Origin: a virus
Lineage: Duplodnaviria > Heunggongvirae > Uroviricota > Caudoviricetes
Length of the DNA stretch: 41,644 nucleotides
IMG/VR virus record: IMGVR_UViG_2617271072_000007
Direction: 5' to 3' (one strand)
Shown here: positions 1 to 39,775 of the stretch, in pieces
Numbering within the stretch: the first letter of the stretch is position 1
Layout of the letters: every line of letters starts with the position of its first letter
Program-made: the position numbers and the translations under genes
The notes under the pieces: generated by a model
Told to the model about the DNA's origin: nothing
The model's database searches: none
Seen by the model: the letters and a program-made list of their open reading frames with translations, nothing else

Positions 1-420
1 ATGAAAACACACATTGATAATATAAAACCGGGACAAATGTTGATTCTCACATTCCCTGTAGGGGATGATAATTTCACATTCTATGAGCAAAATGCGAATG
101 TCATTGCAAAACTAAATGATTCTGCTAGAGACTCAATAATTAACATATACACATATTCACGCTCATTAATACAATCATTTAAAGGAAACAACAAACTCAT
201 TGAGGATTATGAAAAAATCCTTATTGGCATGGCAGACAATAACAAAGATAAAACCATGTATAAGAGATTACATGATGCAAAAATAAATGTAATGGTAGAT
301 TATGCTCAAGGGATAAAAAATATTGATGCAGAGCTAAGAGATGCAGTCAATAAGGGATTCGACATTATCGACCAAGAAGTAAAGTCACTACAAATGAAAT
401 TAAACAAATTAGCTTCATAG
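1..420 (+). CDS. hypothetical AT-rich cargo protein; may be 5'-truncated by the window edge
   Basis: 139-aa ORF starting at nt 1, much lower GC than the phage backbone, convergent with the invertase gene; no recognisable motif. Confidence 0.4.
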   Translation: MKTHIDNIKPGQMLILTFPVGDDNFTFYEQNANVIAKLNDSARDSIINIYTYSRSLIQSFKGNNKLIEDYEKILIGMADNNKDKTMYKRLHDAKINVMVDYAQGIKNIDAELRDAVNKGFDIIDQEVKSLQMKLNKLAS

Positions 421-469
421 AATGCTCCACTCCCTGTTCAATATTTTTACAAGCTTATCAGCCAACCGC

Positions 470-494
470 AGCACGTTCTTGCATACGACGTGCT
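470..494. terminator. putative hairpin between convergent genes
   Basis: 7-bp stem AGCACGT / ACGTGCT with 11-nt loop; weak T tract after it. Confidence 0.3.
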
Positions 495-500
495 ACGGTT

Positions 501-1055
501 TCATTTATCTCCCACCGGAAACCTCTTATACAAAGTCGATATGCCAACATCATAGATGATCGCTACCTTCAGGCGAGGAACTCCTGATGCAATTAATCGT
601 CCGGCCTGTGCCCATTGTTCTGGTGTAAGTTTGGGACGTCGTCCACCAATTCGTCCCTGTGCGCGAGCAGCTTCCAGTCCTGCTTTTGTTCGTTCAACAA
701 TCAGTTCACGTTCCATTTCAGCCAGGGCACCCATCACATGAAAGAAAAAGCGCCCCATTGGGGTACTGGTATCAATTGAATCCGTCAGACTACGAAAGTT
801 GATGCCTCGTTCGCGCAACTCCTCCACCAGCACGACAAGATGCCGCATACTGCGCCCCAGTCGGTCCAGTTTCCAGACCACCAGCGTATCACCTGCCGAT
901 AATGTCCTGAGTAGTTTTTTCAGTCCCGGCCTTTCGGACTTTGTACCGCTTATCTTGTCTTCAAAAATCAGCTCGCATCCTGCACAGTTCAGCGCATTAC
1001 GTTGTAGATCTGTGTTCTGGTCATTTGTTGACACACGTACATAGCCAATAAGCAT
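501..1055 (-). CDS. serine recombinase, DNA invertase (Pin/Gin/Hin/Cin family)
   Basis: N-terminus MLIGYVRVSTNDQNTDLQ with catalytic Ser, VVWKLDRLGRS and C-terminal HTH; RBS GGGAGA before the ATG at 1055; track ORF 501..1091 starts earlier in frame. Confidence 0.9.
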   Translation of the reverse strand: MLIGYVRVSTNDQNTDLQRNALNCAGCELIFEDKISGTKSERPGLKKLLRTLSAGDTLVVWKLDRLGRSMRHLVVLVEELRERGINFRSLTDSIDTSTPMGRFFFHVMGALAEMERELIVERTKAGLEAARAQGRIGGRRPKLTPEQWAQAGRLIASGVPRLKVAIIYDVGISTLYKRFPVGDK

Positions 1056-1121
1056 GGTAGATCTCCCTGACAAAAGCAGGAATGATGCCATTTGCTCGTT
1101 ATTTCTGCATTTTCATAAACG

Positions 1122-1149
1122 TTGGTTTTGGAGAAGGTGCTAACTGGGT
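1122..1149. repeat. left crossover (gix/hix-like) site of invertible segment
   Basis: TTTTCATAAACGTTGGTTTTGGAGAAGG; inverted match to 2919-2946 (about 18/20 in the core). Confidence 0.55.
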
Positions 1150-1417
1150 TATGTTACCTGGAGGAATGATAATTCAGCGTGTTTATCTTGGATTTCCTGT
1201 CGGAACCAATGTAAGACACATAACTTTCCCCCGGTCGTTTACAACAACGAACTATTCAATCTCAATTAACTGGAATGATATCGGTACTGCAACAACTGAA
1301 ACACAATCTCCAGCAAATGTGGCGGTTGTTCATCAAACAAAATCATTAACAGGGGCCAGCATCTGGCAGGCAGGTCCCGGGGGATTTAATGTGGACATTA
1401 TAGCGGTGGGGTATTGA
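1135..1417 (+). CDS. alternative tail-fibre C-terminal variable segment (silent orientation, no own start)
   Basis: Open frame beginning inside the left crossover site with GFGEG, matching GLGEG at the right site in the expressed fibre. Confidence 0.55.
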
Positions 1418-1848
1418 TATGTACGTATGGAGCGCTAAAGCAAATGGCTTTTTCCCCATATCGGAGAAAGAAAAAATTTGAGGCATCAGGTCTGTGGCCT
1501 GATGATGGTGTAATAGTCAGTGAAGAAGAACATAAAAAGTTATTTATGGATATTCCACCAAGAAAACAGATTGGAACACAGAATGGAAAACCAGCACTGA
1601 TAGATATTCCTCAGCCGACCAAAAAGGAATTAATCGCTATTGCTGAAGTTAAAAAATCCCAATTACGGGAAAAAGCTGACAGTGAAATATCCTGGCGTCA
1701 GGATGCTGTTGATGCTGATATCGCAACTGATGAAGAAACTTCAACTCTCACCGAATGGAAGAAATATCGTGTGCTGCTGATGCGTGTTGATACTTCAACA
1801 GCACCCGATATTGAATGGCCTACGCCTCCGGCAGTTCAGGCCAGATGA
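1414..1848 (+). CDS. alternative tail fibre assembly protein (silent orientation)
   Basis: C-terminus [13 protein letters not shown] parallels [13 protein letters not shown] of the expressed assembly protein; convergent overlap with it. Confidence 0.65.
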
Positions 1849-2422
1849 CATCCGGCGCGGTGCTGGTATCTGTTACCGTCACCGCGTCAATGTAATCCAG
1901 CACGGCGTTAAGTCGGGTTGTTTCTGCCTGCGTCAGCTTCCGCCCGGCCTGTAATTTCAGTTGAATCAGACTGATGGAAGCCATTGCAGTATCAATCAGT
2001 GACTGACGCTGTGCTTCTGCCGCTCCTACTGCGGCGCTATGCTGTGCCTCAGTATCGGTCACCCATTTCTCACCATCCCATTTATCGTATAGCGTTAATG
2101 GGGCGATAGTGGTTGTATTTTCAGGATAATCACCCGGTGCTGTGATTTCTTTCGATTCTCCTGTTTCGGTGCTATAGACGATTTCACTGCGATGGTCTGG
2201 CACATATTCCCACGAGTTATAATCTGCAGAACGGCAAATTGCATAACCAGCTTTATATGAGCCGGGAGCATCTAAACAGGAACATGCCGGAATGCCGACA
2301 CCCACAGCAAGATATTCAGTTGATGTGAAAATATATTCCCGTGTTTCACCATCATAGTTATAAACCGTAATATTTCCTGCCTGGGTGGCGATAAATTCGT
2401 TATTTAATACAGCGTAATCCAT
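1820..2422 (-). CDS. tail fibre assembly protein (expressed orientation)
   Basis: 200 aa; start overlaps the fibre stop (TAATG); typical Tfa-like sequence. Confidence 0.85.
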
Positions 2423-3288
2423 TATGCAGCCCTCACAATATACGCAAATGCCAGGTTACGTGGTCTGGTTTCTTTAATTAAAGAGGAGGCATCAGGTGAA
2501 CTCACTGATTCAGCACCATTTCTTCCACCAGTGGTATAAGTAAAAACTCGCTCACTGTTAGACCAGTAATCCACACCAACTGTTCTTGCTGATGAAAAAA
2601 TGGTTTCATCAGATATAACCTGTTCTATTCCATACGGGATATTAGTAACTGACCCCACTTTTGTAGGTATTCCATGATTATGAGAAATTACTGCATGCTC
2701 TTGATTCGTTAATAAAGTACGACCGCTATCCACTCCACGCCCGTCATCCCAGCCACGAATAAACTCACCACGTAAATCAGGCAATTTATTTGTCGGGTAA
2801 GCCTTTGCCAGTTCCGGGTATTCTTCAGCAGAAAAAGCCGCACCATTGCATTTCAACCAGCCTGTTGGCGGAGTGGCTGAAGGCCATGGAACAGGCACAC
2901 CAACAGGTAATGCAGAGCCTTCTCCCAAACCAAGGTTTTCGAGAGCCGTTTTCACCGTGCCGTCCGATTTGATATCGCCAAACGGATTCTTGCGGCTCAG
3001 GTATTCAACAGCAAACCCCGATCCCAGCAATTCAACAAAACCGGGCAGATCACCATTATCAAGCACATCCCGTTGCGTTTTATCACTTACAAACTGGGCC
3101 AGAGCTGCAGCAATAAAGCTGGCCTGCCGAATAACCTTATTGACTTGCGCACTGGAGGCTTTCCCTGCTGTAAATCCAGATAAAAGCACGGGCAACGCTT
3201 CCCATTCCTCCTGCGATATAACATTGGCATTTCGATCCGTTGCAAACGCTTTAAAGTCATTTTTCGCCATCAGAGTAATACTCCCCAT
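2422..3288 (-). CDS. tail fibre protein; constant N-terminal part plus invertible C-terminal part
   Basis: 288 aa; right crossover site lies inside the gene at about 2919-2946. Confidence 0.85.
2919..2946. repeat. right crossover site of invertible segment
   Basis: CCTTCTCCCAAACCAAGGTTTTCGAGAG, inverted copy of the 1122-1149 site. Confidence 0.55.
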
Positions 3289-3327
3289 GCTCCTACATCA
3301 AAACCACTGATGAATTCGTTATCCATA

Positions 3328-3951
3328 TCAAAACCCAAAAAATTTTGAGCCTTCCGATGGGGTTTCCACCGAAGGTGTTTCAATGCCACCCGCCCATACC
3401 CCGGCGGCTTTTACTGTGAGATACCCCTGTTTAATTGCCGCAATTAGCTCACGCGATACATCTGAAATATCAGTATCAGGAAAGACCCAGACCGATATCG
3501 TCATGTCCTGGTTATCGACTATCTGCATTCGCAGCCCGGATCCTGCTGTTGCCGCGTCAAGAATTGCCGGAAGCGAATCATTCCGTCCGTCCCAGTTATT
3601 AATCGCAATCTTCGCTTTAAGAATGACACGATAAGTTTCATCGCTGAGATACATGTATCCTGAATCAGGATCGTATGGTCCCTGCCATACCCCCTGATCA
3701 TATCCAAGCCCGTCGGTATCCCAGCTGAAATAGACACCTGAGATAGGCTGGCTGACAACACGGCTACGTCCGATCCACAATCCCAGAATGTCAAGTTGCA
3801 CACCAACCGCAGAGTCAATATCAAATGCAGTAATCAGCCCTCTGGTGGCCGCCGCAACATCAATAAGCGGCCGGGTCATCAGATCAACATGCGCAAGAAA
3901 TTTAGGTTTGGTGGCGTGGTAGTTCGTGATTAGTTCGGTGTATTTGCTCAT
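3328..3951 (-). CDS. tail/baseplate protein (P2 gpI / DUF2313-like)
   Basis: 207 aa between the baseplate J-like gene and the tail fibre gene; position and size fit. Confidence 0.6.
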   Translation of the reverse strand: MSKYTELITNYHATKPKFLAHVDLMTRPLIDVAAATRGLITAFDIDSAVGVQLDILGLWIGRSRVVSQPISGVYFSWDTDGLGYDQGVWQGPYDPDSGYMYLSDETYRVILKAKIAINNWDGRNDSLPAILDAATAGSGLRMQIVDNQDMTISVWVFPDTDISDVSRELIAAIKQGYLTVKAAGVWAGGIETPSVETPSEGSKFFGF

Positions 3952-8317: not shown

Positions 8318-8904
8318 TAGCCGCCCCCCAGTAATGACGCCACGTTACCCGTGATGCTTTTCAGCAGTGAAGTATCTGGAGGTTTTGTGGTTTTGTTGCC
8401 GCTGTTCTGTACCGCCGAGGTGCTGGCCCCTTCCTTCATATTGGTTTTATCCGCGACGGTAATCTGCTGTGTCCGGGAGATAAGGACCTCCCTCAGGGTA
8501 AGAACGGCGGACAGGACGTTTTCGGTTGTCTTGTCCGTCGTCACTTCCAGCGCCCGGATCAACATGTTGCTGTACAGTCGTTTACCGGTTACCACATCGA
8601 AGGGGATACGGCTTTCCTGCAGATCCAGTAGCTCCTGATACGTCTGCTGAGGACTCAGGCCGAGCAGGCTGGTAGCTGTCAGATTACTGGCAAAATCCAG
8701 CAATGCGCCGCCACCGGCGAAACCAACCTCCATCACCACTTCTGACGGTTTTTTATAGGCATGATCAGCGACAGCAGCCCCGACCTCTACCGGATGCTCT
8801 GTTATTTCAAGCATATCTGTATGCTTCTCTGAAATAACAACACTGGGAACAATCATTCCTATTTTTCTGCTCTGCTGATGAAAAAGTGTAGAGAGAATAT
8901 CCAC
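8317..8904 (-). CDS. tail protein, function unassigned
   Basis: 195 aa, immediately after the tape measure gene. Confidence 0.45.
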   Translation of the reverse strand: MDILSTLFHQQSRKIGMIVPSVVISEKHTDMLEITEHPVEVGAAVADHAYKKPSEVVMEVGFAGGGALLDFASNLTATSLLGLSPQQTYQELLDLQESRIPFDVVTGKRLYSNMLIRALEVTTDKTTENVLSAVLTLREVLISRTQQITVADKTNMKEGASTSAVQNSGNKTTKPPDTSLLKSITGNVASLLGGG

Positions 8905-10891
8905 TAACCCACCCTCACCTGATTACTTCGCATGACCTGAGCATTTGCAGACTGTTGCCGACGTGCAACCTCATTACCGACAGCGTGCGGATCTCCGCCA
9001 CCGTAAATGTGGTAAGTATTTTGCTGATTAACCTCTGTCATTTTGCCACTAATTCCCGCCACGGCAGCCTTATTAATCAGCTCTCGGGAATAGATATTTC
9101 TTCCATTTTCATGCTGGATAATGCTGCTCATCAATGCTGACATGGTTTGCGGCTCGCTCATATTCAGGGCAGCCCGGGGATCCACTCCCAGTCGTTGCGA
9201 TACAGCCCTGATATACGCAGTTGTGTTGTTATTATCAGACGCAGGTGCCCAGGTAGAGATAATTTTCTCCACACTGTTTATTCCCCGTCCGGCGTACAGC
9301 ATTAACTGACGAGCAAGAGCCCGTAATCCATCAAAAGCAGTTTCAAATCTGGCAAATCGCCCGCCCGGGCGTTCAAGAGAAGCCCCTGCCTGACCAGCAA
9401 AATTAAGGTTTCCCGGATTGTTATTCCGTTCTCCTCGTTTCGTAGCCTGTGCATATTGTTCCGGCTCATCATCACCAAACCAGCCGCGTACCGTCCGGCC
9501 CACGCTGCGGGGATCGAATCCCCAGTGCTCTTTAATCCAGTCGGCAGTACTGTTAGCGCTGTCTGTAACTATCGGCATCGCTGACGGATTTTCGCTGCCC
9601 TGATTAAGTATCTGTTTGCCGATGCTGACGGCATCAACCCAGCGGCCATCTTTGATAGCGTTGAGCAGGTCGGCGATCATGTTCAGCATTTTGCTGAATT
9701 CGCCCATCTGGTCGATGAAGTTGCTGAAATCCCACTTCAGGGACCATGATTTGGGGTCAATATTGAGCAGTTTCGCCAGCGCTTTCACCAGGTCGTTAAC
9801 GGTCGTTTTAAGGTCACGAACCATCTTCAGCGCGGCATCAACCTCCGGTTTCCACTTGCCCCAGTCAATCAGGCTGTCGCCGCCTTCCTTCCAGGTCTGA
9901 TAGTCCTCCCACAGGAGGGCAATCCCCGCCGCCAGCGCGGTAATGAGGCCAATCGGCGACATCCAGAACGTACTGTTCAGAATGCGCAGCGCAATCGTCA
10001 GTGCGCCAAACAGCGAGATCAACTCCCGCGTTTGCTTATCCAGCGATTGCCACCAGGTGATGAGGCTTGATGTTCCTTCAATCAGTCTGAAGAACAGCCG
10101 CCCGATAATATCCCCGAGCGCCAGAATGCCTTTTATGGCTTTCGTCAGGGTCTGCTCGATACGCGGGAAGTTGTCCAGGATATGGCGGCGCAGGGTGTCC
10201 AGCGAACCCGCAAGCCCACCCGCAAGATTAGAGCCGATTTTGTCACGGGCCATGCCTGCCATCGCGCTAAACTCACGCAGGGAGGTCATAAATTTGTTGG
10301 AGCTTCTGGCCGCCTCTTCAGCATTGAAGCCGATAGCTTTCGCCATTGCGCTGTACTGCCCGGAGAAACCACCCACACCCCGGCGCATCGCCATAAGGGT
10401 ATTTTCGTCAATGCCCAGCATCTGCGCATACTGGTTAGCCCGGTAATACGGCATGCCGCTGAGCTTCTGGCCTACACCTGTAAAAATAGCGGCCATGTCA
10501 CGCATGTTACCGCTGGCATCCCGTGTCTGTACCCCCAGGCGATTCAGAAATCCCTCTGCACCGGGATTGTTACGAATAAACCGGGAGAGGCTTTCCAGAG
10601 AAGATCGCGCAGCGTCCACGCTGCCGCCAACCCGCGAAACCGCATATCCAATAGACTGAATTCCCTGGACTGTCGCGCCAGTGCGCTGTGACGCCCAGTA
10701 AAGATTATCCAGGCCGGAGGCAATCTTAGCCGTAAAGGCCACCACGGACAGTGCAGCTCCTTCAACGGCCAGTCCCATTTTGATGACATTTGCAGTTGTA
10801 CCGGCGAGGACAGAACCGAATTTTTTGCTCCAGCATCATCCACACTGAAGCCAAGCGAGACGAGGAAATCTTTAATAGTTTCAGCGTTCAT
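8904..10891 (-). CDS. tail tape measure protein; frame broken by a 1-nt indel
   Basis: Start MNAETIKDF at 10891 with RBS GGAGAGAGG; frame switches at the A6 run (plus T6 about 10821-10826) into the 624-aa ORF 8904..10778; an A7 restores one frame. Confidence 0.8.
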
Positions 10892-16689: not shown

Positions 16690-17913
16690 TTTACCCTTTA
16701 CGGTTTGCCCAGAATTCAGCGTTTTGTTTGTTCAGGGAAGCGATACTGGTCATGCCCATGTTTAGGCGCTGTGCATCGCCGGTGGTGGCGCGGGTGTTTC
16801 GCCCTTTGGCAATCTCAGACACGGCATTAAACGCCATGTCGACCGATTGTTTCGGCAATTTGCGGATATCCGCATCACCGACGATCTGGCGAACCAGCGT
16901 TTTTATCTGCGGAAGCCAGAACCTCGCGTTTTGAACTCGGTCGGTTTCATCTTACGGCTCAGATCGATACCCGGAACGATAACTTCGGCACGCCAGGCTG
17001 AGTCACCAGTAATCGTGGTTTCCTCTTCATCGTCCTCGCCGTCACCGGTCGGATTATCGTCAGGCTTATTATCGTTATCGCCCGTGGCATTTCCTTCCAG
17101 CTTAGCCAGCAGGGCTTTCAGTAATGTTTTGAGGTCATCATCACTGTCGCCGGTTGGACCTCCACCCATCTCTGGTGCTTTGTCCGGTAGTGGTTGCTGC
17201 GGGGACAGGTTGATGTTGAGATTAACGCCCTGCGGCAAATCCCCCTCATCTCCTGTAACCGATGCGGGAGCCGACTCCACCAGTTCGTTCATGGTGTCGG
17301 CATCTCCTGTCTTGATGGCTGCACGCATGCGGTTCCACCAGTTTTTTCTTTTGATTTGCCATTGTGTCTCTGTCTCCAATTGCACAACGATTTCCGGCTC
17401 TGCCTTTGGGGACAAGAGCCACATGGTTTCCGGTAATATCGACCTGCCCGGCTTTACCTGGCTCGGTCTGCTCGTACTCCGCGTCATAGCCGCACGACAC
17501 TTCACGCAGGCCATCTTCGATAAGCTGAATGGCGTTTTCGTCTTTGACGATAAGGTCAGCCAGCATCAAATCAGACTGCTCACCCGTCCCGCGCCGGACA
17601 TTCTGAAGATGCCCGACAGCAAGCTCTTTCCAGTTCTCGGGATTTACCAGCCGCACATTCCCGTTTTCATCTTCAGGATGCAGGATCGTGATGCTCATCC
17701 CTTCGAATGAGGCAAGCGTGGCCGGATGGAATACCTGCTCAGGAGAACGTGTGACGACTATTTCACCGAACTTATCGGGTTTCAGTTTTGGCAGGTCATC
17801 AGCACCATAGAGCTGCTTACCTGTTCGTCCTATCGGCACGTCTTTGCACAGCAACGAGCCGTCAGCCAGCTGGTAGCGGGTTTCTCCCAGCCGGGTATTG
17901 AAAAATATTTCAT
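16690..17913 (-). CDS. capsid scaffold / maturation protein (DUF2213-like); frame broken by three 1-nt indels
   Basis: [13 protein letters not shown] core, acidic Asp/Glu-rich middle; frame changes at homopolymers near 17901-17905, 17342-17347 and 16905-16935. Confidence 0.6.
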
Positions 17914-17927
17914 GGGTTACCTGCGAT

Positions 17928-18701
17928 TCAGGCGGGATAAGATTGGGAGGTGGGAAAAACGATTTCTTTATAACAGCGACAATTCGGGAGCTCGCCAGCA
18001 TGACCTGTCATGCCGTCAAGCGTTGGAGGTTTGCCCCATTCGACAAATTTACCTTCCATTTCCTGATGAGAATGCCTGACGTCACCATCTTCGGCTGTAC
18101 GCCAGATATAACCATTCGAACCAATTGACAGCGCACGCGCCTGATCCAGCGCGCCGGTTGCACGTCCAAGTTCAGTACGGGCAATCAGGTCAGCTCTGGA
18201 CTTTGCTATATCACCCGATGCGGCTATTTCTTTAGCAAAATGTTCCGCTCTCCCACCGGTAACAACAGCTTCTATCGCCCGATTCTGGATGTCGTACACC
18301 CTGTCAGCCGCCTCGAGGGGGAGCGATTTGATGTACTTAACCTGTTCAGCAACGATGGATTTCATCACCTGCCCTGGGGGGGCACTGTTTACCAGATTGC
18401 GTAGCTCACGGCTGATGGTTTTGCTGTGTTTACGCCACTGCTCATCATTCTTGCGCACAATGTCGGCGGTAAAGTTTTCCGCGACCTTTGTCGCCCAGGG
18501 GGTGATGATTTCACTGTAGCGTTCCAGCGCCTCAATAATTTCCGTGATACTGTCATTTGAACCATCGTAGCGACCATTTACGATGTCCCCGACCGCCCGC
18601 GCTATCCTGCGTAGACTGGTTCGATACCGGATTTCCGCCTGACGGTTCCTGCGGTTCGTCATCAGGTTCGCCGATGCCGGGCGGCGCTTCGTCTTCGGCA
18701 T
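17928..18701 (-). CDS. Mu F-like head morphogenesis protein
   Basis: 257 aa; likely true start MTNRRNRQ at about 18662. Confidence 0.8.
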
Positions 18702-20019: not shown

Positions 20020-21643
20020 CAGGCCTGTCTCCCTAGCAGCTCCCAGATGTTCAGGGCTGAATTCATTGGGGCATAGTTGATCATCACCGAGTCGGCAAAG
20101 TTTGGCGATCGGGTTCCATCAGGCTGTTTATCAATAACGATTTTTCCCACACCATTAATGGAATAGGTCGGCTGCGAAAGCTCGATGATGAGTTTATCTT
20201 TGAGTGCCATGCTACTGCTGATTGAGATGATTTCGTCCGGGTTGTAAGCCATACCTTCAACCACGGCGCGCCAGGTATTCTGAAAAAAGTTTACGTAACC
20301 GCCACCAGCTCTGGGCTTTGGCGTTAGCGAAGAAGTCCTTGTTCAGACGTGCGGCTTGCCCGTTGTCCCCGCGAACAGCTTCATCATCCGGATCAAATAC
20401 CGCGCCACTACCTCGAAACGGTGTGGCAAGTATTGACGGTCGACGCGCAGCGTTACGCAGTTCGTTGATAGCGCGTGCATCGCCGCGAACGCCAGCGCCC
20501 AGCCCGTCCTCGTCAAAGCGAAACTCTTCGAGGTTGTCCTGTTCGCAAAAGCCGAAAACCTTCTCGACGGACTGATAAATGTCGCTGCCCACACCGGACC
20601 ATTCCCGCACATTTTCCAGGAGGAAGCCATGACGGGTGGAAAAGGCATTTTTGTCCCTGCCTTCATCGGCGACATCCATCGCGCCAAGTCGTTTGCCTGT
20701 TGGCTGGATCCCCAGTTTGATATGCGCATCAACGGCAGCCTGTACCCATTCGGATGGAATCAGAACGCCTTCCGCTGATGCGCTGTAGTTCAGATCAAGT
20801 TCCTGTGCTACCACCACCGGATTATCGATTTTCTCGCATTCCCTGCGATACCACTCTTCATCCTTGCGAGGATCATCCCGCCAGTGGAATGTGAATACCG
20901 GTATCTTCCCGCCATGACGCTTCTGAGCGAACGGGTTAGCCATGCCGTTAACTGAACTCAGGTCGATACGGCAACGCGTCGTTTTGTGACAACGCCGCAT
21001 CAATCAGCAGAGGACGCTGAAGGAATGCAGCCTCATCAACCAGATAAAGCGTGGTACGGTCACCACGACCAATATTATCGCCAGCCTCGCCTTTGATAAC
21101 GGCACCAGTTTCAGGAAACTCAACACGCATATATGGCGCGTGCTTCTTCTCGCTCCACGAACCGCGAAACTCTACAGGTAGCGTTTCCACGAACTTGCGC
21201 GCCTTCCAGAACAATGCTTTCGGGTCACCAGTGCTGTCGACGTATTCCTCTTTACGGGAGCCGAAACCGATAACCATTTCTTTGTTGAAGAGACAAAGCG
21301 AGCAGGCCAGTCCGATCGCGGTCCAACTGAGCCCCATTTCACGGGATTTTTCGGTAATACCATTCTCCCGATTGCTCCAGCGTTCCATAATCCAGTGGAT
21401 CCACTCCTCCTGCTTAGGGAAGAGTAAAAACGGAATGGTCACCGGCAGGCCATAATCAATATTACGCGGGTCCGTTGTCATGCCCCAGTCGATGATGAAC
21501 TGAGCCGGATTAGTTCGGTAAAACTGTTTTAGTGCAGGCAATATTTCAGGATTCTGGCGAATGCGCTGTAGGCGTTCCATCCGCCATTCAAAAACCATCT
21601 GGTAATCAGGATGTTTAAAATCGAAGGGGAATGGTAACGGCAT
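20019..21643 (-). CDS. terminase large subunit; frame broken by two 1-nt indels
   Basis: ATPase Walker [10 protein letters not shown] plus C-terminal nuclease domain; three ORFs join at plus T4 (about 20982-20985) and plus A6 (about 20283-20288). Confidence 0.85.
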
Positions 21644-29505: not shown

Positions 29506-29655
29506 ATGAAACCTGAACACATCCATCGACTGACGGGGCGCGATGTTCTCCGTTATCGCCGTAAAAACTTCGATTTGATGACCGGTCTGGCCGTTGCCAC
29601 TGCGCTCGGTCTGATCATCACTTTCATTCTCCTTGTAGCGAGGACCACAGTATGA
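29506..29655 (+). CDS. small membrane peptide (49 aa); not in the ORF track
   Basis: RBS AAGGAA, Arg-rich N-terminus, C-terminal helix LAVATALGLIITFILLV; stop overlaps the next ATG (ATGA). Confidence 0.4.
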   Translation: MKPEHIHRLTGRDVLRYRRKNFDLMTGLAVATALGLIITFILLVARTTV

Positions 29656-30554
29656 GTTTAGAAACCAGTCTCGAACTTAATAATCAACTTCTGGCACAAC
29701 ATAATGCGCTGCTTGAACGTCTTATCCGCACAATGGCATCAGGTATTGTTATGCATCCTGACACGATTTCACGAGTGCAGGAATGTCGGGATACAGCAAC
29801 TGAAGCTGAAAACATGTCAGCGGCAATGACACTGGATGATCTGGAGTTCAGCGACGTTATCGCACTGGCTGGTTTCTACCCGGTAGCCACCCCTATCACA
29901 GAAGACATGCTGCAACGTGCTGTTGCCTACCGTGATGCTGAAGGCGATAAACGAGTAGTTCAGATTGATGCTCTCGACAGCGCATTACAGGGCGTCAAAC
30001 GAGCCAGGGCGCTGCTTAAACCTGCTCTCCTGGACCTGTCCCGTAACATTCTTAAGTTCTGGGACGACCTGCCAACCATCGGCGAGCGACGTGCTTTTGC
30101 CGAGCAGCTACTTGATGCACCTGCAGATGGGCGTGATGAAGTTAAGCCGAAAAAGGCCAGTAACAAAGATGGAGAACGCACGGGGCCGTTTTACGTCAAA
30201 AATGTATCCGGCACAGCAGCCAGTGAACTCCACACCTTACGCAAGTTGAACGAGATGCTTAAAAAAGGCCATATCGAGATCAACCGTGTTGAGTACCTTC
30301 AGCTGCAGGAAGAATTTGCACGCAAAGACGCAGCAAATTCCAGCCAGAATAATGACGCCAAAGATGACCATACAATTGATTTCGCGGCACTACGCAAACA
30401 AGCTGAAGGGTTGATCCTCCAGTTAGCAAAAGGGGGTTACCGGGCAGAAGCTATTGCAATTCTGGAAAAACAGGGAGCCAGGAAACTTGGTGAAGTAACG
30501 GATGAAAATCTCGCTGAAGTAATCACCCTGGCTGAAAAAGCACTGGAGGGTTAA
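29652..30554 (+). CDS. hypothetical early protein
   Basis: 300 aa, translationally coupled to neighbours, no motif recognised. Confidence 0.55.
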
Positions 30555-30556
30555 TT

Positions 30557-31858
30557 ATGCCAGACGTTCATGCACGACTTTCCCCGTCATCGGCGCATCG
30601 ATGGATGCGCTGCCCAGGAAGTCTGGCGCTGGAGGCCACACAACCGGATAAAGAAACAACTTTTGCAATCGAGGGCACTGCAGCGCACGCGCTTGCTGAA
30701 AAAGTTCTACGAAACAGGCAAAGCCACCCGGAACACTACGCCGGATGCAATGTTTCTATGTTTCTCGGCTCATACCCCCTTCGCGAAAATCCTGATGATA
30801 CATCTGGCCCACAGGTGGATGATGAAATGGTCGAAGCCGTTGGCCGGTATGTTGATACGGTCTGGACTCTTGCACAGAATAATGAACTATTGGTTGAACA
30901 ACGTGTTGATTTCTCACATATAACGGGTGTGGAAGAATCTTTCGGAACTGCCGACGGCATAATCATCGCGGGTAACGAATTACAAATCCACGACCTGAAA
31001 TATGGCAAAGGCGTCCGCATTGATGCAGAACAAAATGAGCAACTACAACTGTATGCTCTGGGTGCGCTCGAACAATTCAGCATGCTGTATGACTTTGAGA
31101 CTGTAAGATTATTTATTCACCAGCCAAGGCTCAACCACGTTTCAGAATGGTCGTTAACCGTACAGGAACTTCAGTCTTTCGGTGAACGGGCACTGGAGGC
31201 CGCAACCAGTGCGATCCTTGTTCTCAATATTGCTGAATGCGAAGGCATTGAGACACTACCGCTGGAAAACTTCATACCTGGAGAAAAACAGTGCCGCTTC
31301 TGTAAAGCAAAAGCTATTTGCACTGCCCAGAAAATGCAGCATTTACAAACAGCGGCCAGCGACTTTGAAGATCTGACAAAGCCTGTCAGCGAAATAATCA
31401 CCAATGCCAGCGCACGTGTACCTCTGTTAACCATTGAGCAGCTTGCGGAGATCTATAGCCAGGCCGACTTTATTGAATCCTGGCTAAAGGCAGTACGGGA
31501 CCGGGTTCATAATGAACTCAATGCCGGACATCCGGTACCGGGGTTTAAACTGGTAACAGGAAAACAAGGTAACCGGGCCTGGAGTGATGAAGAGGCAGCT
31601 CGCGCACTTCTGAAGGACCAGTTCAGGTACAAAACTGAAGAAGTATTCGACTTTAAACTTATTAGTCCCACAAAAGCCGAAAAACTTATCAAAAAGGCCA
31701 GTCCGCGCCGTTGGTCAAAAGTCGAGGCACTGATAACACGAGCTGATGGTAAACCCACCGTCGTTCCCGAGTCAGACCCACGCCCCGCACTCAATATCAA
31801 CCCTGTAAATGATTTCGACGACGTATCCGACGATACGCTAACCGCAGACCTCATCTGA
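30557..31858 (+). CDS. PD-(D/E)xK nuclease, DUF2800 / Cas4-like
   Basis: 433 aa; ADGIII ... IHDLKYGK nuclease motif and Cys cluster [10 protein letters not shown]. Confidence 0.7.
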
Positions 31859-31873
31859 TTTAAGGAAATACCC

Positions 31874-32422
31874 ATGAAACTGAAGCTGAACAATGTTCGT
31901 CTGGCCTTCCCGTCTCTGTTTGAAGCTAAAACTGTAAACGGCGAAGGCGATCCGCGTTTCTCCGCAGTATTTTTAATGTCTCCCAAACACCCACAACTGG
32001 AAGAAATCCGTAAAGCTATGAAGCAGGTAGCGAAGGAAAAATGGGGGGAGAAGTGGGAGTCCATTTATAACCAGCTGGAGAAAAAACTCAATCTGTGCCT
32101 GCATGATGGTGATGAAAAAGCAGAGTATGAAGGCTTTCCCGGCAATTTCTTCCTGAACGCTGCTAACAAAGCGCGCCCAGCTGTTCTTGATCGCGATCGT
32201 TCGCCACTAATTCAGGCTGATGGACGTCCCTATGCAGGGTGCTATGTAAACGCCGTTATCGATATCTGGGCACAGGACAATAATTTCGGTAAACGCATTA
32301 ATGCCTCACTCGGCGGAGTCCAGTTCCTGCGAGACGGCGATGCATTCGCTGGCGGCGGAGTGGCAAGCGCTGACGATTTCGACGATATCAGCGAAGGCGC
32401 TGATGCTGAAGCACTAATTTAA
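31874..32422 (+). CDS. DUF2815-like protein (ssDNA-binding-type partner of DUF2800)
   Basis: 182 aa, N-terminus MKLKLNNVRLAFPSLFEAK, acidic C-terminus. Confidence 0.65.
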   Translation: MKLKLNNVRLAFPSLFEAKTVNGEGDPRFSAVFLMSPKHPQLEEIRKAMKQVAKEKWGEKWESIYNQLEKKLNLCLHDGDEKAEYEGFPGNFFLNAANKARPAVLDRDRSPLIQADGRPYAGCYVNAVIDIWAQDNNFGKRINASLGGVQFLRDGDAFAGGGVASADDFDDISEGADAEALI

Positions 32423-32474
32423 AAAATATTCATCCCCCAGCTACGTGCTGGGGTATCTCATGAGGGAAAGTATA

Positions 32475-33116
32475 ATGTCACAGCCCGTATTAACTAATCA
32501 CCTTAAAACTCAAATCATCAATAACGCACTTGAGAAAGCGGGTATTCCCAAACGTAAATCAGCACTACGAGCTACTCGTGTTGAATGGGCCGAACGTGTT
32601 CGGCTTGCAGCTATCGGGGGCGTAGAGAAAGAAGCTGAAATATTAAAAAATATAAAAAGATTGAATCCATGGTCACAAAAATCCTCTGATTCATTAAAAA
32701 CCAATAGTTCTTTAATTCGAAAAGATTGCTGCATATATCTCAATCTGGCTGGAGCCAGAGCAAACATTTATTTCAATGGCAACTACAGAGGTTATGAATC
32801 AGGAGCCCCCGAGCATATTAATAAAATAGCACCTGCAGAATTTACTCTACTTGGCGAAGATCCTCTGGTAACGGAGTTTTATAGCTTTGATGCTCTCTAC
32901 ACACAAATTAAAAGTGATGAAACCGAAATCATACAGAACGTCAGCGCGGCTCTAAATAAAGTTCGGACAGTAAAACGATTACTGGATGTATGGCCCGAAG
33001 CTAAAGAACTGCTTCCAACAGACGCACCGCCAGTCCCTTTAGCACCAGCAGTACATCGAGAGACATTAAATGAAATGATAGGCCTTCCTACCAATACAGT
33101 GTCTGATACTCAATAA
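32475..33116 (+). CDS. hypothetical protein, AT-rich
   Basis: 213 aa from MSQPVLT with RBS GAGGGA; track ORF 32445..33116 starts at an upstream GTG. Confidence 0.5.
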   Translation: MSQPVLTNHLKTQIINNALEKAGIPKRKSALRATRVEWAERVRLAAIGGVEKEAEILKNIKRLNPWSQKSSDSLKTNSSLIRKDCCIYLNLAGARANIYFNGNYRGYESGAPEHINKIAPAEFTLLGEDPLVTEFYSFDALYTQIKSDETEIIQNVSAALNKVRTVKRLLDVWPEAKELLPTDAPPVPLAPAVHRETLNEMIGLPTNTVSDTQ

Positions 33117-33799
33117 CAAGGGGGATGCTTATTATATGATTTTGAACGTTTTACAATCTCGTTAAGAGGCGTGAAATCAAAATCTCTGAATAACACATCA
33201 GGATACTTCGCTCTTGCTTTATCCAGCAGACCAGTTAAAGTATTTTTTGTGTTACCCAACATTGTATTAACCGCCACTACATGTCTAATTTCTGGAGGTT
33301 TATCTATACCACCAGAAATTGCTTCATTAAGAACCGACGCCAGTGGGGTTTGTCCCTTACTTGTTGAATCCCACAGCGTCATTAACAGACGAGCTGCGTC
33401 TATAAATAGCTTTTTGTCAGCATTTGGCTTGACAGTAATACCAGAACTACCTGAGCCAGAACCGGAACGTTCTATTGCTGCACTGGTATCCGATTTCATA
33501 GGATTAAATAACGGCAGCTCTGTACAACCGATACGCCGAATGAAATCCTTTGCAACATCTCTACCACAGAAAAAAGCCCCTGTACAATTTTCATCAGAGC
33601 GTTTTTTAAATGAAAAACAATAGTACTGATCGGTTAACGGATAACCGGAATAACTGGTTTTAGTTTGTCCAGTAATAAGTTTCAGGTGTGCAACAGGCTG
33701 AATAATAAAATCCCGAACTATCGCATCTTTTATGTCGTTACCACGGTGACAATAATATTCAGGTAATCCATTAGGCTGTCTCTTATTACCCACAGTCAT
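33110..33799 (-). CDS. hypothetical two-domain protein, AT-rich, antisense to the operon
   Basis: 229 aa; Cys/His-rich N-domain, SGSGSGSSG linker, C-domain; convergent 7-nt overlap with the preceding gene. Confidence 0.55.
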   Translation of the reverse strand: MTVGNKRQPNGLPEYYCHRGNDIKDAIVRDFIIQPVAHLKLITGQTKTSYSGYPLTDQYYCFSFKKRSDENCTGAFFCGRDVAKDFIRRIGCTELPLFNPMKSDTSAAIERSGSGSGSSGITVKPNADKKLFIDAARLLMTLWDSTSKGQTPLASVLNEAISGGIDKPPEIRHVVAVNTMLGNTKNTLTGLLDKARAKYPDVLFRDFDFTPLNEIVKRSKSYNKHPPCY

Positions 33800-33860
33800 T
33801 AGTTGTCTCCTTTAATTCATGATATCTAGCATTTAACCATATACCATATGAGGATATTTT

Positions 33861-35924
33861 ATGTCCAATATACTATGGGGCGACCTGGAAACCTATTGTG
33901 ACATTCCGATCAACAACGGTACCCATGCGTATGCCGAAGGCGTTGAAGTGATGCTTTTCGCATGGGCTATCAACGACGGGCCAGTAAACGTGTGGGATAT
34001 CACTGCCGGTGGTGGTATTCCACACGGCTTATACGAAGCAATCGCAGACCCTGAAACCCTGCTTTATTTCCATAACTCTCACTTCGACCGCACCGTTCTG
34101 CGTTATGCAATGCCGCGACTGGCACCGCCAGTCGAACGTTGGCGCGACACGATGGTGCAGGCGCTGGCGCACGGTCTCCCGGGGTCTCTGGGGGAACTCT
34201 GCGAAGTACTAGGCGTCCCGCAAGACAAAGCGAAGGACAAAGAAGGTAAAGCGCTGATCCAGCTGTTCTGTAAGCCACGCCCGAAAAACAGCAAACTGCG
34301 TCGGGCCACCAGTAAAACCCACCCGGAAGAATGGCGGCGCTTTGTTGCTTACGCCGGACTGGATATCGAGGCAATGCGCGAAGTCTATAAACGTCTGCCG
34401 AAGTGGAATTATCAGGGGACAGAACTGGCGCTCTGGCATCGTGATCAGCAGATCAATGACCGGGGCGTCTGCATGGACATGCAACTCGCACGCGCTGCGA
34501 TCGAAGCGGTAGACCAGGAACAAAAGCGCCTGGCAAAGCGTACACAGGAAATGACTGATGGCGAAGTGCAGGCAGCCACACAACGAGACACGTTGATTAA
34601 GCACATTGTTGAATCCTACGGTGTGGAGCTACCAGACATGCAACGCAGTACTCTGGAACGTCGTATTGCCGACCCCGATTTACCATCTGCCGTGAAAGAA
34701 CTGCTGGCTATCCGACTGCAGGCCAGTACTACCAGCACCAGTAAATACAAGGCACTGATGAAAGGCGTAAGCCACGACGGGCGCTTACGCGGTACGCTAC
34801 AGTTCTGCGGGGCGTCACGTACCGGTCGTTGGGCCGGACGGCTATTCCAGCCCCAGAATCTTCCCCGCCCTTCACTAAAACAGGAACAAATAGACGAAGG
34901 CATCGAAGCACTGAAAGCCGGATGTGCAGACCTGCTGTTTGACAATATCATGGAACTAACCAGTTCAGCGTTACGTGGCTGCATTATCGCGCCAACAGGC
35001 AAAAAACTGGTGGTAAGTGACTTGTCGAACATTGAAGGCCGTATGCTGGCATGGCTGGCAGGAGAAGAATGGAAACTGAATGCATTCAGAGAGTACGACG
35101 CCGGAACGGGTTCGGACTTATATAAACTGGCGTATGCAAAAGCTTTCGATATTGCACCAGATGATGTTGATAAACACATGCGTCAGATCGGTAAAGTCAT
35201 GGAGCTCGGTCTGGGTTATGGTGGTGGTGTATCGGCTTTCATCACTTTTGCGCTGGTTTACGGTCTCGATCTCGACGAGCTGGCGAACGCCGCACTGCCA
35301 AACATTCCCCGCGATGTTATCCGCGAGGCGAAAAGCTGGTACGACGAATCGGTTAAACGCAAGTCAACCTACGGGCTTTCTGAACGGGTATTTATCGCCT
35401 GCGACTCACTTAAACGTCTCTGGCGCAGGGCGCACCCGGCGACCTGCGATTTCTGGTACGAACTGGAGCGCACCGTCCGCACAGCAATCGCCACACCGCA
35501 AAAAACATTGTATTGCGGCTATCTTAAAATCCGACGTGATGGCGCGTGGCTGCGCATACAGCTACCATCCGGACGCGCTGTATGCTACCCGTCTCCGGTT
35601 ATCGAAAAAGGGAATATCACCTACATGGGTGTTAACTCTTATTCGCGTAAATGGCAACGACTCAAAACCTACGGCGGAAAGCTGGTGGAGAACGTCACCC
35701 AGGCAGCCGCCCGCGACGTTCTGGCCGGAAACATGCCGCTTATCGAAGATGCCGGTTACAGCATTGTGTTGACGGTACACGACGAGGTGATCACCGAAGC
35801 ACCTGACACAGAAGATTTCAACGATAAAGCGCTTTCCGCGCTTCTCTCCACTAACCCCGAATGGGCACCCGATATTCCGCTGAATGCTGGCGGCTTTGAG
35901 GCGTACCACTACCGTAAGGAGTAA
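33861..35924 (+). CDS. family-A DNA polymerase with 3'-5' exonuclease domain
   Basis: 687 aa; DLETY exonuclease motif, [11 protein letters not shown] (motif A), [12 protein letters not shown] (motif B), VHDEV (motif C). Confidence 0.9.
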
Positions 35925-35931
35925 TACAAAG

Positions 35932-36960
35932 TCACTTAAAATCCCTAGATAACATCTGCGAAGCAGCTGATGCTGTATAAACTCCAGTATGTTTTATTTC
36001 TGCAGCTATTTTGTAGCCATCCTCCTTAAACTGCGTAAGCATTGAGCTTAAGGAACCAAGTTTTTTAGTATTCAACACCATTCTAACGACAGTTCCTTCA
36101 TGATAATGACCTAACTCTATATGCTTCTTTCCGTGTTCATCTAGATATATTGCATGGTCACCGCTACAAATAAGAAAACTACCGCCAAGTTTACATATAC
36201 GGCTGATCATATAAAGGCCAAATCCCGAATTATGCCAAGGATTTCTTGTATTGATTCTCGCCCCCTTAAAATTTTTACTAGAAATAGATGGCATTAACGC
36301 TAACTGAATGGCTTCAGAATCATTATCAGCTTCTATATAAGGGTTCTTCGATAGAGATTTTTTCATTCCTATACCATTATCAGAAATTGTTATTTCAACA
36401 CGGTCATAAGAAGGCCAATACTGTGCACAATATTCAATCACCTTTGAATCACTATGTTCCACAACATTACGCATAATTTCCCTAATAGAAAATGTCAAAG
36501 CATCAATGAGGTCGCCTTCTTCTTGGCGAGCAAGAATCTTTGCTAATTTACCAGATCGTTCCTCAACTATCTCTTGCACCTCAGTATATTTATCGTTAGC
36601 TTCATCTATAACTGTTTGAACACGAAGAATTGTAAATGGAACAAAATTATTATTTCCATCTGTACATCCCGGTTCACGGCCATGCTTTAACCCGAAGGCT
36701 CGAAAGAATGCCATATTTGCGGCATAATCCTTATTCTCATGCCCGCTACAAAAAAGTTTAAAACCATCAATGTTCTTTTTCTGTTTTCGATGGAAGTCTC
36801 GAATATGCTTAGCAACATAAACCATTGTAAATGGTTCAATCCTTCCCATATGCGAAAAATCGATTGTTATTTGCTGTTGACCTGAATGTTTTTCAATTTC
36901 ATTGCAAAAATTAAATATCTTTTCAGGATTACATGAAGAGGGAAATAAGATTCGTGACAT
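35932..36960 (-). CDS. GHKL-type (histidine-kinase-like) ATPase with unknown N-terminal domain; cargo gene
   Basis: 342 aa; N-box NVVEHSDS, G1 DNGIGM, G2 GFGLYM; AT-rich; opposite strand to the operon. Confidence 0.65.
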   Translation of the reverse strand: MSRILFPSSCNPEKIFNFCNEIEKHSGQQQITIDFSHMGRIEPFTMVYVAKHIRDFHRKQKKNIDGFKLFCSGHENKDYAANMAFFRAFGLKHGREPGCTDGNNNFVPFTILRVQTVIDEANDKYTEVQEIVEERSGKLAKILARQEEGDLIDALTFSIREIMRNVVEHSDSKVIEYCAQYWPSYDRVEITISDNGIGMKKSLSKNPYIEADNDSEAIQLALMPSISSKNFKGARINTRNPWHNSGFGLYMISRICKLGGSFLICSGDHAIYLDEHGKKHIELGHYHEGTVVRMVLNTKKLGSLSSMLTQFKEDGYKIAAEIKHTGVYTASAASQMLSRDFK

Positions 36961-37020
36961 ATTAATTCCTTATACTTGTTTTATTTGATACTACCCAATA
37001 AGTGTTAACAAGGCAAATTT

Positions 37021-37308
37021 ATGTCTTATGAACGTGAGAGCCTTATCGAAAAGCACCTCGTCGCTGAAGTGAAAAAGGCTGGCGGTGTGGCCTTTAAGTT
37101 CGTATCTCCCGGTCGCCGCTCGGTACCGGATCGCATTGTTCTGCTACCCGGCGGCCGTCTTGTTTTCGTTGAATGCAAAGCACCCGGCAAAGCACCACGC
37201 GCCGACCAGTTGCGCGAGCACGAGCGGCTGCGCGAGCTGGGCTTTACCGTGGTGGTGCTGGATAGCAAAAATCTGGAGGAAATTATTTTAAGCCGCAATA
37301 AAAGATAA
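37021..37308 (+). CDS. VRR-NUC nuclease
   Basis: 95 aa; PDRIVLLPGG ... FVECK PD-(D/E)xK core; GC-rich. Confidence 0.75.
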   Translation: MSYERESLIEKHLVAEVKKAGGVAFKFVSPGRRSVPDRIVLLPGGRLVFVECKAPGKAPRADQLREHERLRELGFTVVVLDSKNLEEIILSRNKR

Positions 37309-37320
37309 AAGACTTATGCT

Positions 37321-37905
37321 TTAATCCGTATTTTTAACACGTGTTTCGAAACACTCTTTTAATTTAGCTATTTCCTTTTTAGAGGACATAACTGTGAATT
37401 TCATCCCTTTTAAATCATTAACAAATTCAAATTTTGCGCTATTGGACTCACAATCACCAACAACAAAACCACTACCAAATGAATTGAGCAACACTTTAGT
37501 ATTACTACCATCTACCATATAATATTCGTTATTTTTAAATGCAGTAACCTTCCCGAAGGTATAGCTCAATATCAATAATGTCATCACCCCTAAAGGAAAA
37601 GCTGATTTTAGGATTTTTAAATCGATATAATAAAATACGTCTTTATACTCTGCAAGCCTCCCAAACTTTCTAATGCTATCCATATGATGTTCGTGTCTCT
37701 TACTATGGATTGACGCGGACACCGCATTGTGGTAATTCAACAAAAGCAGAGCAAATAATAAAATATCTCCAACACTCATCACAGAGGTTTCGGAGAAATA
37801 ACCAAAAGGCCAATGAAATCCTATTATGTAAAAATTAGGTATTAGCATAACCACTATAAATATAATAAATGGAACATAATATTTCCCTTTCAAATCAAAC
37901 ATCAA
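37321..37905 (-). CDS. membrane protein, AT-rich cargo
   Basis: 194 aa; three N-terminal hydrophobic helices plus about 80-aa soluble domain; likely ATG at 37902. Confidence 0.6.
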   Translation of the reverse strand: MMFDLKGKYYVPFIIFIVVMLIPNFYIIGFHWPFGYFSETSVMSVGDILLFALLLLNYHNAVSASIHSKRHEHHMDSIRKFGRLAEYKDVFYYIDLKILKSAFPLGVMTLLILSYTFGKVTAFKNNEYYMVDGSNTKVLLNSFGSGFVVGDCESNSAKFEFVNDLKGMKFTVMSSKKEIAKLKECFETRVKNTD

Positions 37906-38183
37906 TGTCGCGTATAAGGCACCGAGAAATAAAAACTAAAAAACAAAAGCCATACAGCCGAATACAATAGCGTATTTAAATCTATTTTAATAAAAAAGGG
38001 CTGGATAGCCATAATACGATGCAACACCTTTCTGAAAAGAATATGCCATCGCATAAGCTAAACGCTGAAAAAACAGTTAATAAAGAAACTTGTTTTGTAA
38101 GTATTTTTGCCAGGGGCATACCCGCCTCCGTTAGTTATATATATAGAGAGAGAATTGACACATATTCTACCATAGGTGTATTA

Positions 38184-39578: not shown

Positions 39579-39775
39579 GCGAGAAACCCGACGATTTACT
39601 CACCCCGGATGAAGTATGCCAAAAGTTAGGTATTACACAGAAAACGCTATGTGAGTGGAATATTAAGCATCGTCATCGGGCTATCCTGGCACCAATTCGT
39701 TTCAGTGCAAAAGTAGTTCGTTATGAGCGCCGCAATGTCGACGCTTTTATTCAAAAGTGTCGCAGCCGGTATTAA
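39575..39775 (+). CDS. xis: AlpA/Xis-type excisionase or DNA-binding regulator
   Basis: 66 aa HTH; start overlaps the SNF2 stop; convergent with the integrase. Confidence 0.7.
   Translation: MSEKPDDLLTPDEVCQKLGITQKTLCEWNIKHRHRAILAPIRFSAKVVRYERRNVDAFIQKCRSRY

Follow-up and report, generated by a model that had tools for sequence, protein, structure and literature searches.

The locus described here raises the question of whether the DNA between the serine invertase gene and the tail fibre gene of an Escherichia coli-type prophage is a switch that still inverts and, if so, which parts of the phage it exchanges. We conclude, with a probability of roughly 0.93, that it is a Pin-type site-specific inversion switch (Hin/Gin/Cin/Pin family) located where the tail operon of a temperate myovirus-type prophage terminates (Table 1). 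Systems of this kind are already known, and the one analysed here is a close homologue of a textbook example.

The window, that is, the whole stretch of 41,644 nucleotides that was analysed (IMG/VR record IMGVR_UViG_2617271072_000007), corresponds to about one whole prophage of approximately 41 kb inserted between yfhH and yfhL. It starts on the yfhH side, inside the gene for a 215-aa hypothetical protein beside pin, and extends to yfhL, a short distance past a tyrosine integrase gene (39772-41175). The prophage encodes a contractile-tail-type module, with DUF3383, DUF3277, baseplate J and DUF2612 proteins, and its own replication module that includes a DNA polymerase, VapE and a helicase. Escherichia phages vB_EcoM-606R2, vB_EcoM-611R5, vB_EcoM-689R2 and vB_EcoM-683R1 match the structural region at 98% identity across 93% of its length, and Salmonella phage SEN34 is 82% identical to it. 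We assign the element to the vB_EcoM-606R2/SEN34 group of temperate myovirus-type prophages, of which it is apparently a complete member. The possibility that the window is e14 itself was rejected on the backbone genes and the integration site: mcrA is absent, and DUF2612, baseplate J, DUF3383 and the DNA polymerase module are present.

Table 1. Features of the inversion locus, in window coordinates
Feature	Position	Strand	Details
pin, serine DNA invertase, 184 aa	501-1055	-	Pfam Resolvase, 1.9e-51; HTH_7, 8.3e-11
Presumed Fis-dependent recombinational enhancer	966-1037	-	nt 19-90 of pin, by homology to the P1 annotation
Stub plus silent gp53-like fibre C-terminus	1082-1417	+	Pfam PF21882 Gp53-like_C, 5e-06; stub (1082-1121) outside the segment, gp53-like end at 1124-1417
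Left (pin-proximal) site	1110-1135		26 bp, TTTTCATAAACG TT GGTTTTGGAGAA; central dinucleotide 1122-1123
Invertible segment	1122-2933		1812 bp, central dinucleotide to central dinucleotide
Silent tail fibre assembly (chaperone) gene	1419-1848	+	Caudo_TAP, 4.2e-35
TfaE-like assembly gene in the expressed position, 200 aa	1820-2422	-	Caudo_TAP, 1.9e-31; PHROG 105, 3.7e-95
Tail fibre gene, present form	2422-3270 (upstream ATG at 3288)	-	Pfam Collar, 2.6e-15; PHROG 3100, 523 and 11303 (tail fibre); constant N-terminal part 2934-3270, variable Collar-type C-terminal part 2422-2931
Right (fibre-internal) site	2920-2945		26 bp, TTCTCCCAAACC AA GGTTTTCGAGAG; central dinucleotide 2932-2933; codons ...ENLGLGE...

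The invertase gene lies just outside the interval delimited in a preliminary description of this DNA, with its 5' end facing the segment, and is transcribed away from it. The ORF as called mechanically reaches 1091, and homology begins at MLIGYVRVST, a stretch containing the catalytic serine motif, in which S9 does not vary when the protein is aligned with PinE, Gin and Cin. Identity amounts to 96.7% with PinE of E. coli K-12, 82% with Cin of P1 and 78% with Gin of Mu; the protein belongs to PHROG 125 (DNA invertase) and matches the Gin structure 3UJ3 across residues 1-181 (E=1.7e-93). Comparison with NCBIfam yielded only sub-threshold matches for Pin, and the fibre, chaperone and stub proteins had no specific model in that collection.

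The 5' part of pin presumably also carries the recombinational enhancer. The reference was the P1 record, in which nt 19-90 of cin are annotated as the enhancer. In pin, the equivalent stretch is identical to this enhancer at 55 of 72 positions, to the same region of Mu gin at 54 of 72 and to that of K-12 pinE at 70 of 72. In a crude scan for Fis motifs (G-N13-C with an AT-rich core), a conserved 15-mer (nt 22-36 of pin) was detected in pin and gin, and none in cin; the scan is too crude for use, so that the enhancer is assigned by homology to the P1 annotation only.

Several searches identified the same pair of recombination sites. The longest inverted repeat within 400-3400 pairs 1117-1137 with 2918-2938 (21 nt, 90% complementary, 2 mismatches). 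Across the whole 41.6 kb, with up to 3 mismatches allowed, this 21-mer occurs at these two places only (0.00 expected from 100 shuffles), and a Gin/Hin-type half-site pattern was likewise detected in the whole window at the same two sites only, against 0.27 expected. Each site is composed of two imperfect 12-bp half-sites and a 2-bp core; the core, TT on the plus strand at the left site and AA at the right one, is the same dinucleotide in inverted orientation. The preliminary description had proposed imperfect inverted sites at 1122-1149 and 2919-2946 flanking about 1.8 kb. The right site and the overall arrangement stand, but the left site had been placed about 12 nt too far to the right: starting at the central dinucleotide, it comprised the inner half-site and coding sequence only and missed the outer half-site.

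The two sites were compared with those of e14, read from the MG1655 record (TTCTCCCAAACCAACGTTTATGAAAA beside pinE and TTCTCCCAAACCAAGGTTTTCGAGAG within stfP), and with gix and cix, taken from the Mu and P1 records. At the right site, all 26 positions agree with the stfP-internal site of e14, and the left site matches the pinE-proximal one at 25 of 26 positions, the single departure being a C-to-A change in the inner half-site. The sites are also similar to gix of Mu (TTCCTGTAAACC-GA-GGTTTTGGATAA) and to cixL and cixR of P1 (TTCTCTTAAACC-AA-GGTTTAGGATTG and -GGTATTGGATAA, respectively), all of which share the 12+2+12 layout. A multi-site shufflon or a Min-type system was considered as well and ruled out, as the window has two sites only.

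The segment between the sites consists of two convergent cassettes, each comprising a fibre C-terminus and a Tfa chaperone gene. The variable part of the present fibre shares 58% identity with StfE of K-12, and the constant part, within its final 30 residues, 90% with StfP; the product of the adjacent assembly gene is 88.5% identical to TfaE. The start of the fibre (M7) was chosen after the RefSeq annotation of relatives. Upstream of the fibre gene on the minus strand are the DUF2612 gene and the baseplate J gene; hence the fibre gene, which contains the right site, closes the series of structural genes in the tail operon.

Inversion at these sites preserves the reading frame. Both sites encode a similar block, GLGEG at the right and GFGEG at the left, in the identical frame (...I-N-V-G-F-G-E-G in the frame of the ORF starting at 1082), and at both, the codon immediately before GGT has the central dinucleotide as its positions 2-3. 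When 1122-2933 was inverted in silico, the fibre end was swapped and an uninterrupted fibre ORF of 216 aa was obtained (210 aa from the annotated start), ending in ...IAVGY. This flipped form is annotated as a 210-aa CDS in E. coli MINF_2E (NZ_LR890651.1), and both fibre forms are annotated as CDSs among relatives. Thus, most of the anatomy that the preliminary description had read from the sequence holds: the ORFs and Pfam domains agree with two convergent sets of fibre C-terminus and assembly gene, the GLGEG/GFGEG block is in a shared frame, the enzyme is of the Pin/Gin type by its domains and closest relatives, and the Mu G/P1 C/e14 P arrangement is present with invertase, sites, enhancer homologue and an in-frame alternative fibre, although the host element is not e14.

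One component of the locus appears broken in the window. The silent chaperone gene is interrupted by one extra A in the run at 1472-1477. The run is A5 instead of A6 in MINF_2E, and the gene there is intact, a CDS of 142 aa. Once repaired, the protein of the window matches PHROG 188 (2.6e-54). Over the 41.6 kb, about 23 homopolymer indels but only about 8 substitutions separate the window from MINF_2E, and these indels split many essential genes, including those for the large terminase, a DUF2213 protein and the tape-measure/transglycosylase protein. Such an indel-heavy pattern with split essential genes points to sequencing error rather than decay, and the silent chaperone gene is probably intact in reality. 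If the frameshift were real, the alternative fibre might not fold.

The inversion that the preliminary description proposed has taken place in nature: public genomes hold the prophage both ways round, with breakpoints exactly at the sites. When 400-3400 was compared in its native orientation with 5426 complete E. coli genomes, no match with at least 80% coverage was found, and partial matches numbered in the thousands. In contrast, the same 3001 bp flipped in silico aligned with MINF_2E in a single piece, at 100% coverage and 99.9% identity. In the alignment of the window with the MINF_2E locus, the flanks (1-1137 and 2918-23405) are collinear and 99.9% identical, and the middle (1117-2938) is inverted and 99.8% identical. 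Polymorphic bases within the half-sites delimit the exchange: relative to MINF_2E, those at 1129 and 2926 move with the segment, and those at 1121 and 2934 remain with the flanks, so that the exchange occurred within 1122-1128 and 2927-2933, 7 bp that contain the central dinucleotide. This is where a serine invertase cuts. In a second lineage, the O103:H2 strains 12009 and 129 have flanks that are 100% identical and differ solely by the precise flip between the two sites.

Among IMG/VR viral contigs, both junction types were detected, at 46 and 2 loci. The Collar-type end is joined to the constant part found here in 59 complete E. coli genomes and to the pin-proximal stub in 938. These figures should not be read as a ratio of orientations, since many prophage types share a conserved pin side, which is not true of the constant part. 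For the homologous P segment of e14, experiments with sequencing and PCR have demonstrated inversion by PinE (PMC4272514, PMC12529663). Both orientations were seen side by side in clonal cultures of K-12, through whole-genome sequencing as well as PCR (PMC4272514), and about one third of the E. coli genomes sequenced are reported to carry the segment inverted (PMC12529663). In a study that surveyed programmed inversions systematically, enrichment was observed for tail fibre genes, tail fibre assembly genes and, among the neighbours of inversion targets, the "DUF2612 domain-containing protein" (PMC9881135); the last of these enrichments fits the present prophage type.

Orientation differences of this sort might, in principle, come from RecA-dependent recombination between short inverted repeats or from misassembly, given that such repeats can mislead assemblers and that the window bears signs of noisy sequencing. 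We consider this extremely improbable. At 21 nt with 2 mismatches, the repeat is much too short to be used efficiently by RecA. The exchange was narrowed to 7 bp that surround the central dinucleotide, as expected of a serine invertase, and two lineages show the same precise flip in complete genomes that are independent of each other. The PCR evidence cited above for the e14 homologue argues in the same direction.

The same comparisons bear on whether the locus is a frozen relic, in which sites, pin and cassettes were inherited and the segment no longer inverts in the source strain, for instance for want of pin expression or owing to the C-to-A change in the left site. The departure of the left site from the e14 site at one position, the frameshift in one chaperone gene and the failure of a simple scan to find a promoter-like site for pin would all fit a relic. 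However, in MINF_2E the variant half-site base is at the opposite end of the segment, so that a site bearing it has recombined since these 99.9%-identical prophages diverged; a site with this deviation from e14 is therefore competent. Moreover, the pin ORF is intact and its product 97% identical to the active PinE, and the frameshift is one among the approximately 23 homopolymer indels typical of sequencing error. A relic thus seems very unlikely. As for the promoter, the simple sigma-70 scan of 380-3400 detected none for pin or for the stub ORF and is uninformative, with 1 match elsewhere against 5.4 expected.

In the Pin-type switch that we favour, the late tail operon on the minus strand would be read from the baseplate J gene through the DUF2612 gene and the fibre gene and across the right site into the adjoining cassette. 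In the present orientation, this would yield a 282-aa fibre with a Collar-type tip and the TfaE-like chaperone. Pin dimers would bind the two inverted 26-bp sites and assemble, together with the Fis-bound enhancer at the 5' end of pin, into an invertasome on supercoiled DNA. Both strands would be cut at the central AA/TT, with a stagger of 2 nt, and rotation by 180 degrees and religation would then turn the segment around. The invertasome, cleavage and rotation steps are modelled on the established behaviour of the Gin/Hin family. After the flip, the constant N-terminus (about 111-117 aa) would be fused in frame to the gp53-like tip, followed by the 142-aa chaperone gene, and only the cassette adjoining the constant part would be expressed from the late tail operon.

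We infer that the Pin of this prophage is the acting enzyme and that inversion would require both the enhancer and Fis. In the O103:H2 lineage, the flip is present although the local pin is frameshifted, so that the local Pin is not necessarily the enzyme that acted. The Collar-type and gp53-like tips presumably bind different receptors and differ in host range. Accepting this, lysates of phages of this group would be expected to be mixtures of two receptor specificities, which is of relevance to phage biology and therapy.

The fibre switch could also be viewed as mainly benefiting the host. According to this alternative, the ORF at 1082/1085-1417, made up of the stub and the gp53-like end, would be produced in the present orientation and act like StfE2 of e14. 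Inversion of e14 P creates StfE2, which consists of the stub and a gp53-like domain, and this protein was reported in 2025 to block the adsorption of T2 and other phages (PMC12529663). In the window, the stub is conserved (16 of 20 residues identical to the K-12 stub), the ORF carries a gp53-like C domain, and AGGA precedes the ATG at 1085 by 4 nt. However, BLASTP of the gp53-like end against K-12 StfP/StfE2 aligned the junction and stub only, so that the StfE2 activity is not transferable; the simple scan revealed nothing resembling a promoter ahead of the stub; and the element has the appearance of a complete phage, its relatives include named phages that form virions, and for such an element the switching of fibres is the simpler purpose. 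We therefore regard a switch that mainly serves the host as unlikely. The two roles are not mutually exclusive.

By analogy with StfE2, the specific version of this proposal would be that the 111-aa pin-proximal ORF (a 14-aa stub plus the gp53-like domain) is expressed in the lysogen and masks an outer-membrane receptor against superinfecting phages. We rate it as quite unlikely; if true, the switch would serve phage host range and host defence alike.

Among known inversion systems, the P segment of e14 is the closest to the fibre switch described here. The gene order is the same, the convergent tfa genes overlap by 29 nt in both, and the segment lengths are similar, 1797 bp in e14 (PMC12529663) and 1812 bp here; the orientation of the window is the inverted state of K-12 e14. 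The two elements share the pin/P cassette only: e14 is a lambdoid remnant at icd, with the DUF2313 protein YmfQ and with mcrA beside pinE. The constant N-terminus of the present fibre is mostly unrelated to StfP, and the gp53-like tip and its chaperone are distant from StfP and TfaP (the chaperones are 32% identical) and represent different alleles.

The layout also matches that of the Mu G segment, with Sc outside and Sv-U and U'-Sv' inside. Mu S is read through its site in the same frame (...Q-N-L-G-L-Q-E...), such that the site encodes Asn-Leu-Gly and the central dinucleotide occupies Leu codon positions 2-3. Mu gin follows the segment with its 5' end beside the site, as pin does in the window and pinE in e14. 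Mu differs in the length of the segment (3 kb), the much longer fibres, the central dinucleotide (GA/TC versus AA/TT here) and the unrelated variable ends. In P1, cixL and cixR share the AA central dinucleotide and have similar half-sites, but cin has its 3' end next to cixL, and the C segment is 4.2 kb long. The Min system of p15B shuffles several ends through six sites, compared to the two sites of the window. Hin of Salmonella, with its hix sites, belongs to the same invertase family and follows the same logic of sites and enhancer; Hin flips a promoter and thereby turns flagellar genes on or off, whereas a coding 3' end is exchanged here.

The e14-type pin/P cassette thus behaves as a mobile module that is also found in a SEN34-like temperate myovirus of E. 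coli, where it flips in nature. Otherwise, the finding is of little consequence except for correct annotation. In RefSeq, the cassette is divided into separate CDSs named "tail protein", "gp53-like domain-containing" and "hypothetical", the lengths of which vary with the orientation, and analyses of pangenomes and prophage types can be misled by this. RefSeq labels the invertase of close relatives pinE.

The stub ORF begins a short distance upstream of the left inverted site, before the invertible segment is reached, and the stub supplies a start codon to either fibre end when that end is in the silent position. The stub is conserved, with 16 of 20 positions identical to the start of the stfE pseudogene of Escherichia coli K-12. 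In RefSeq, the ORF consisting of the stub and the fibre end appears as a separate CDS, the name and length of which vary with the orientation of the segment. Within the segment, the two chaperone genes converge: their products have similar C-terminal motifs, encoded on opposite strands, and the genes overlap at their 3' ends by 29 nt, exactly the same overlap as that between tfaP and tfaE of e14, the cryptic prophage of K-12.

The segment is precisely inverted between two E. coli O103:H2 strains, 12009 and 129, notwithstanding the frameshift (around nucleotide 302) that is identical in the adjacent invertase gene, pinE, of both strains. Either another invertase of the Pin family acted in trans in this lineage, or the inversion is older than the frameshift. 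Action in trans would fit the cross-reactivity of PinQ and PinR, which have been reported to act on e14 (PMC12529663).

At the extreme end of the prophage, the serine invertase gene, pin, is adjoined by a gene for a hypothetical protein of 215 amino acids, whereas e14 carries the restriction gene mcrA in this position. The portion of this protein encoded in the window yielded no match in searches against Pfam and PHROG; the gene may represent cargo, or a moron.

Comparison of the whole window with the 99.9% identical prophage of E. coli strain MINF_2E revealed about 23 differences in homopolymer length, mostly +1, and only about 8 substitutions. Relative to MINF_2E, many ORFs in the window are broken by the homopolymer differences, including the large terminase gene. 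Most likely, these differences are noise from the sequencing or assembly of the window's source, and the apparent pseudogenes in the window are therefore not to be trusted.

Coordinates of features of the prophage and of related loci (window positions unless a locus is named)
Feature	Position	Strand	Remark
Hypothetical protein, C-terminal 139 aa	1-420	+	adjoins pin
Stub ORF, MMPFARYFCIFINV	1082-1121	+	at left site
Chaperone gene overlap	1820-1848
Frameshifted pinE, strain 12009	L056 1602-2155
Frameshifted pinE, strain 129	L057 1602-2155
Homopolymer differences	1476, 3334, 5398, 10821, 11115, 16900, 16929, 17342, 17901, 20283, 20982		examples, versus MINF_2E
Homopolymer differences, continued	24668, 24884-5, 25774, 27929, 28491, 32426, 32659, 37936, 37997		examples, versus MINF_2E
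Tape-measure/transglycosylase gene	8904-10778		split by homopolymer differences
DUF2213 gene	16903-18001		split by homopolymer differences
Large terminase gene	20257-21643		split by homopolymer differences
DUF2612 gene, 3' end			split by homopolymer differences
Replication module	~29650-39600		RefSeq annotation of MINF_2E locus

The prophage has a replication module of its own, comprising genes for a DNA polymerase of the family-A type, a DEAD/DEAH helicase, a protein with a VapE domain, a VRR-NUC protein and proteins of the DUF2800 and DUF2815 types. The prophage also encodes a protein annotated in RefSeq, at the identical MINF_2E locus, as an 'Nmad5 family putative nucleotide modification protein'.
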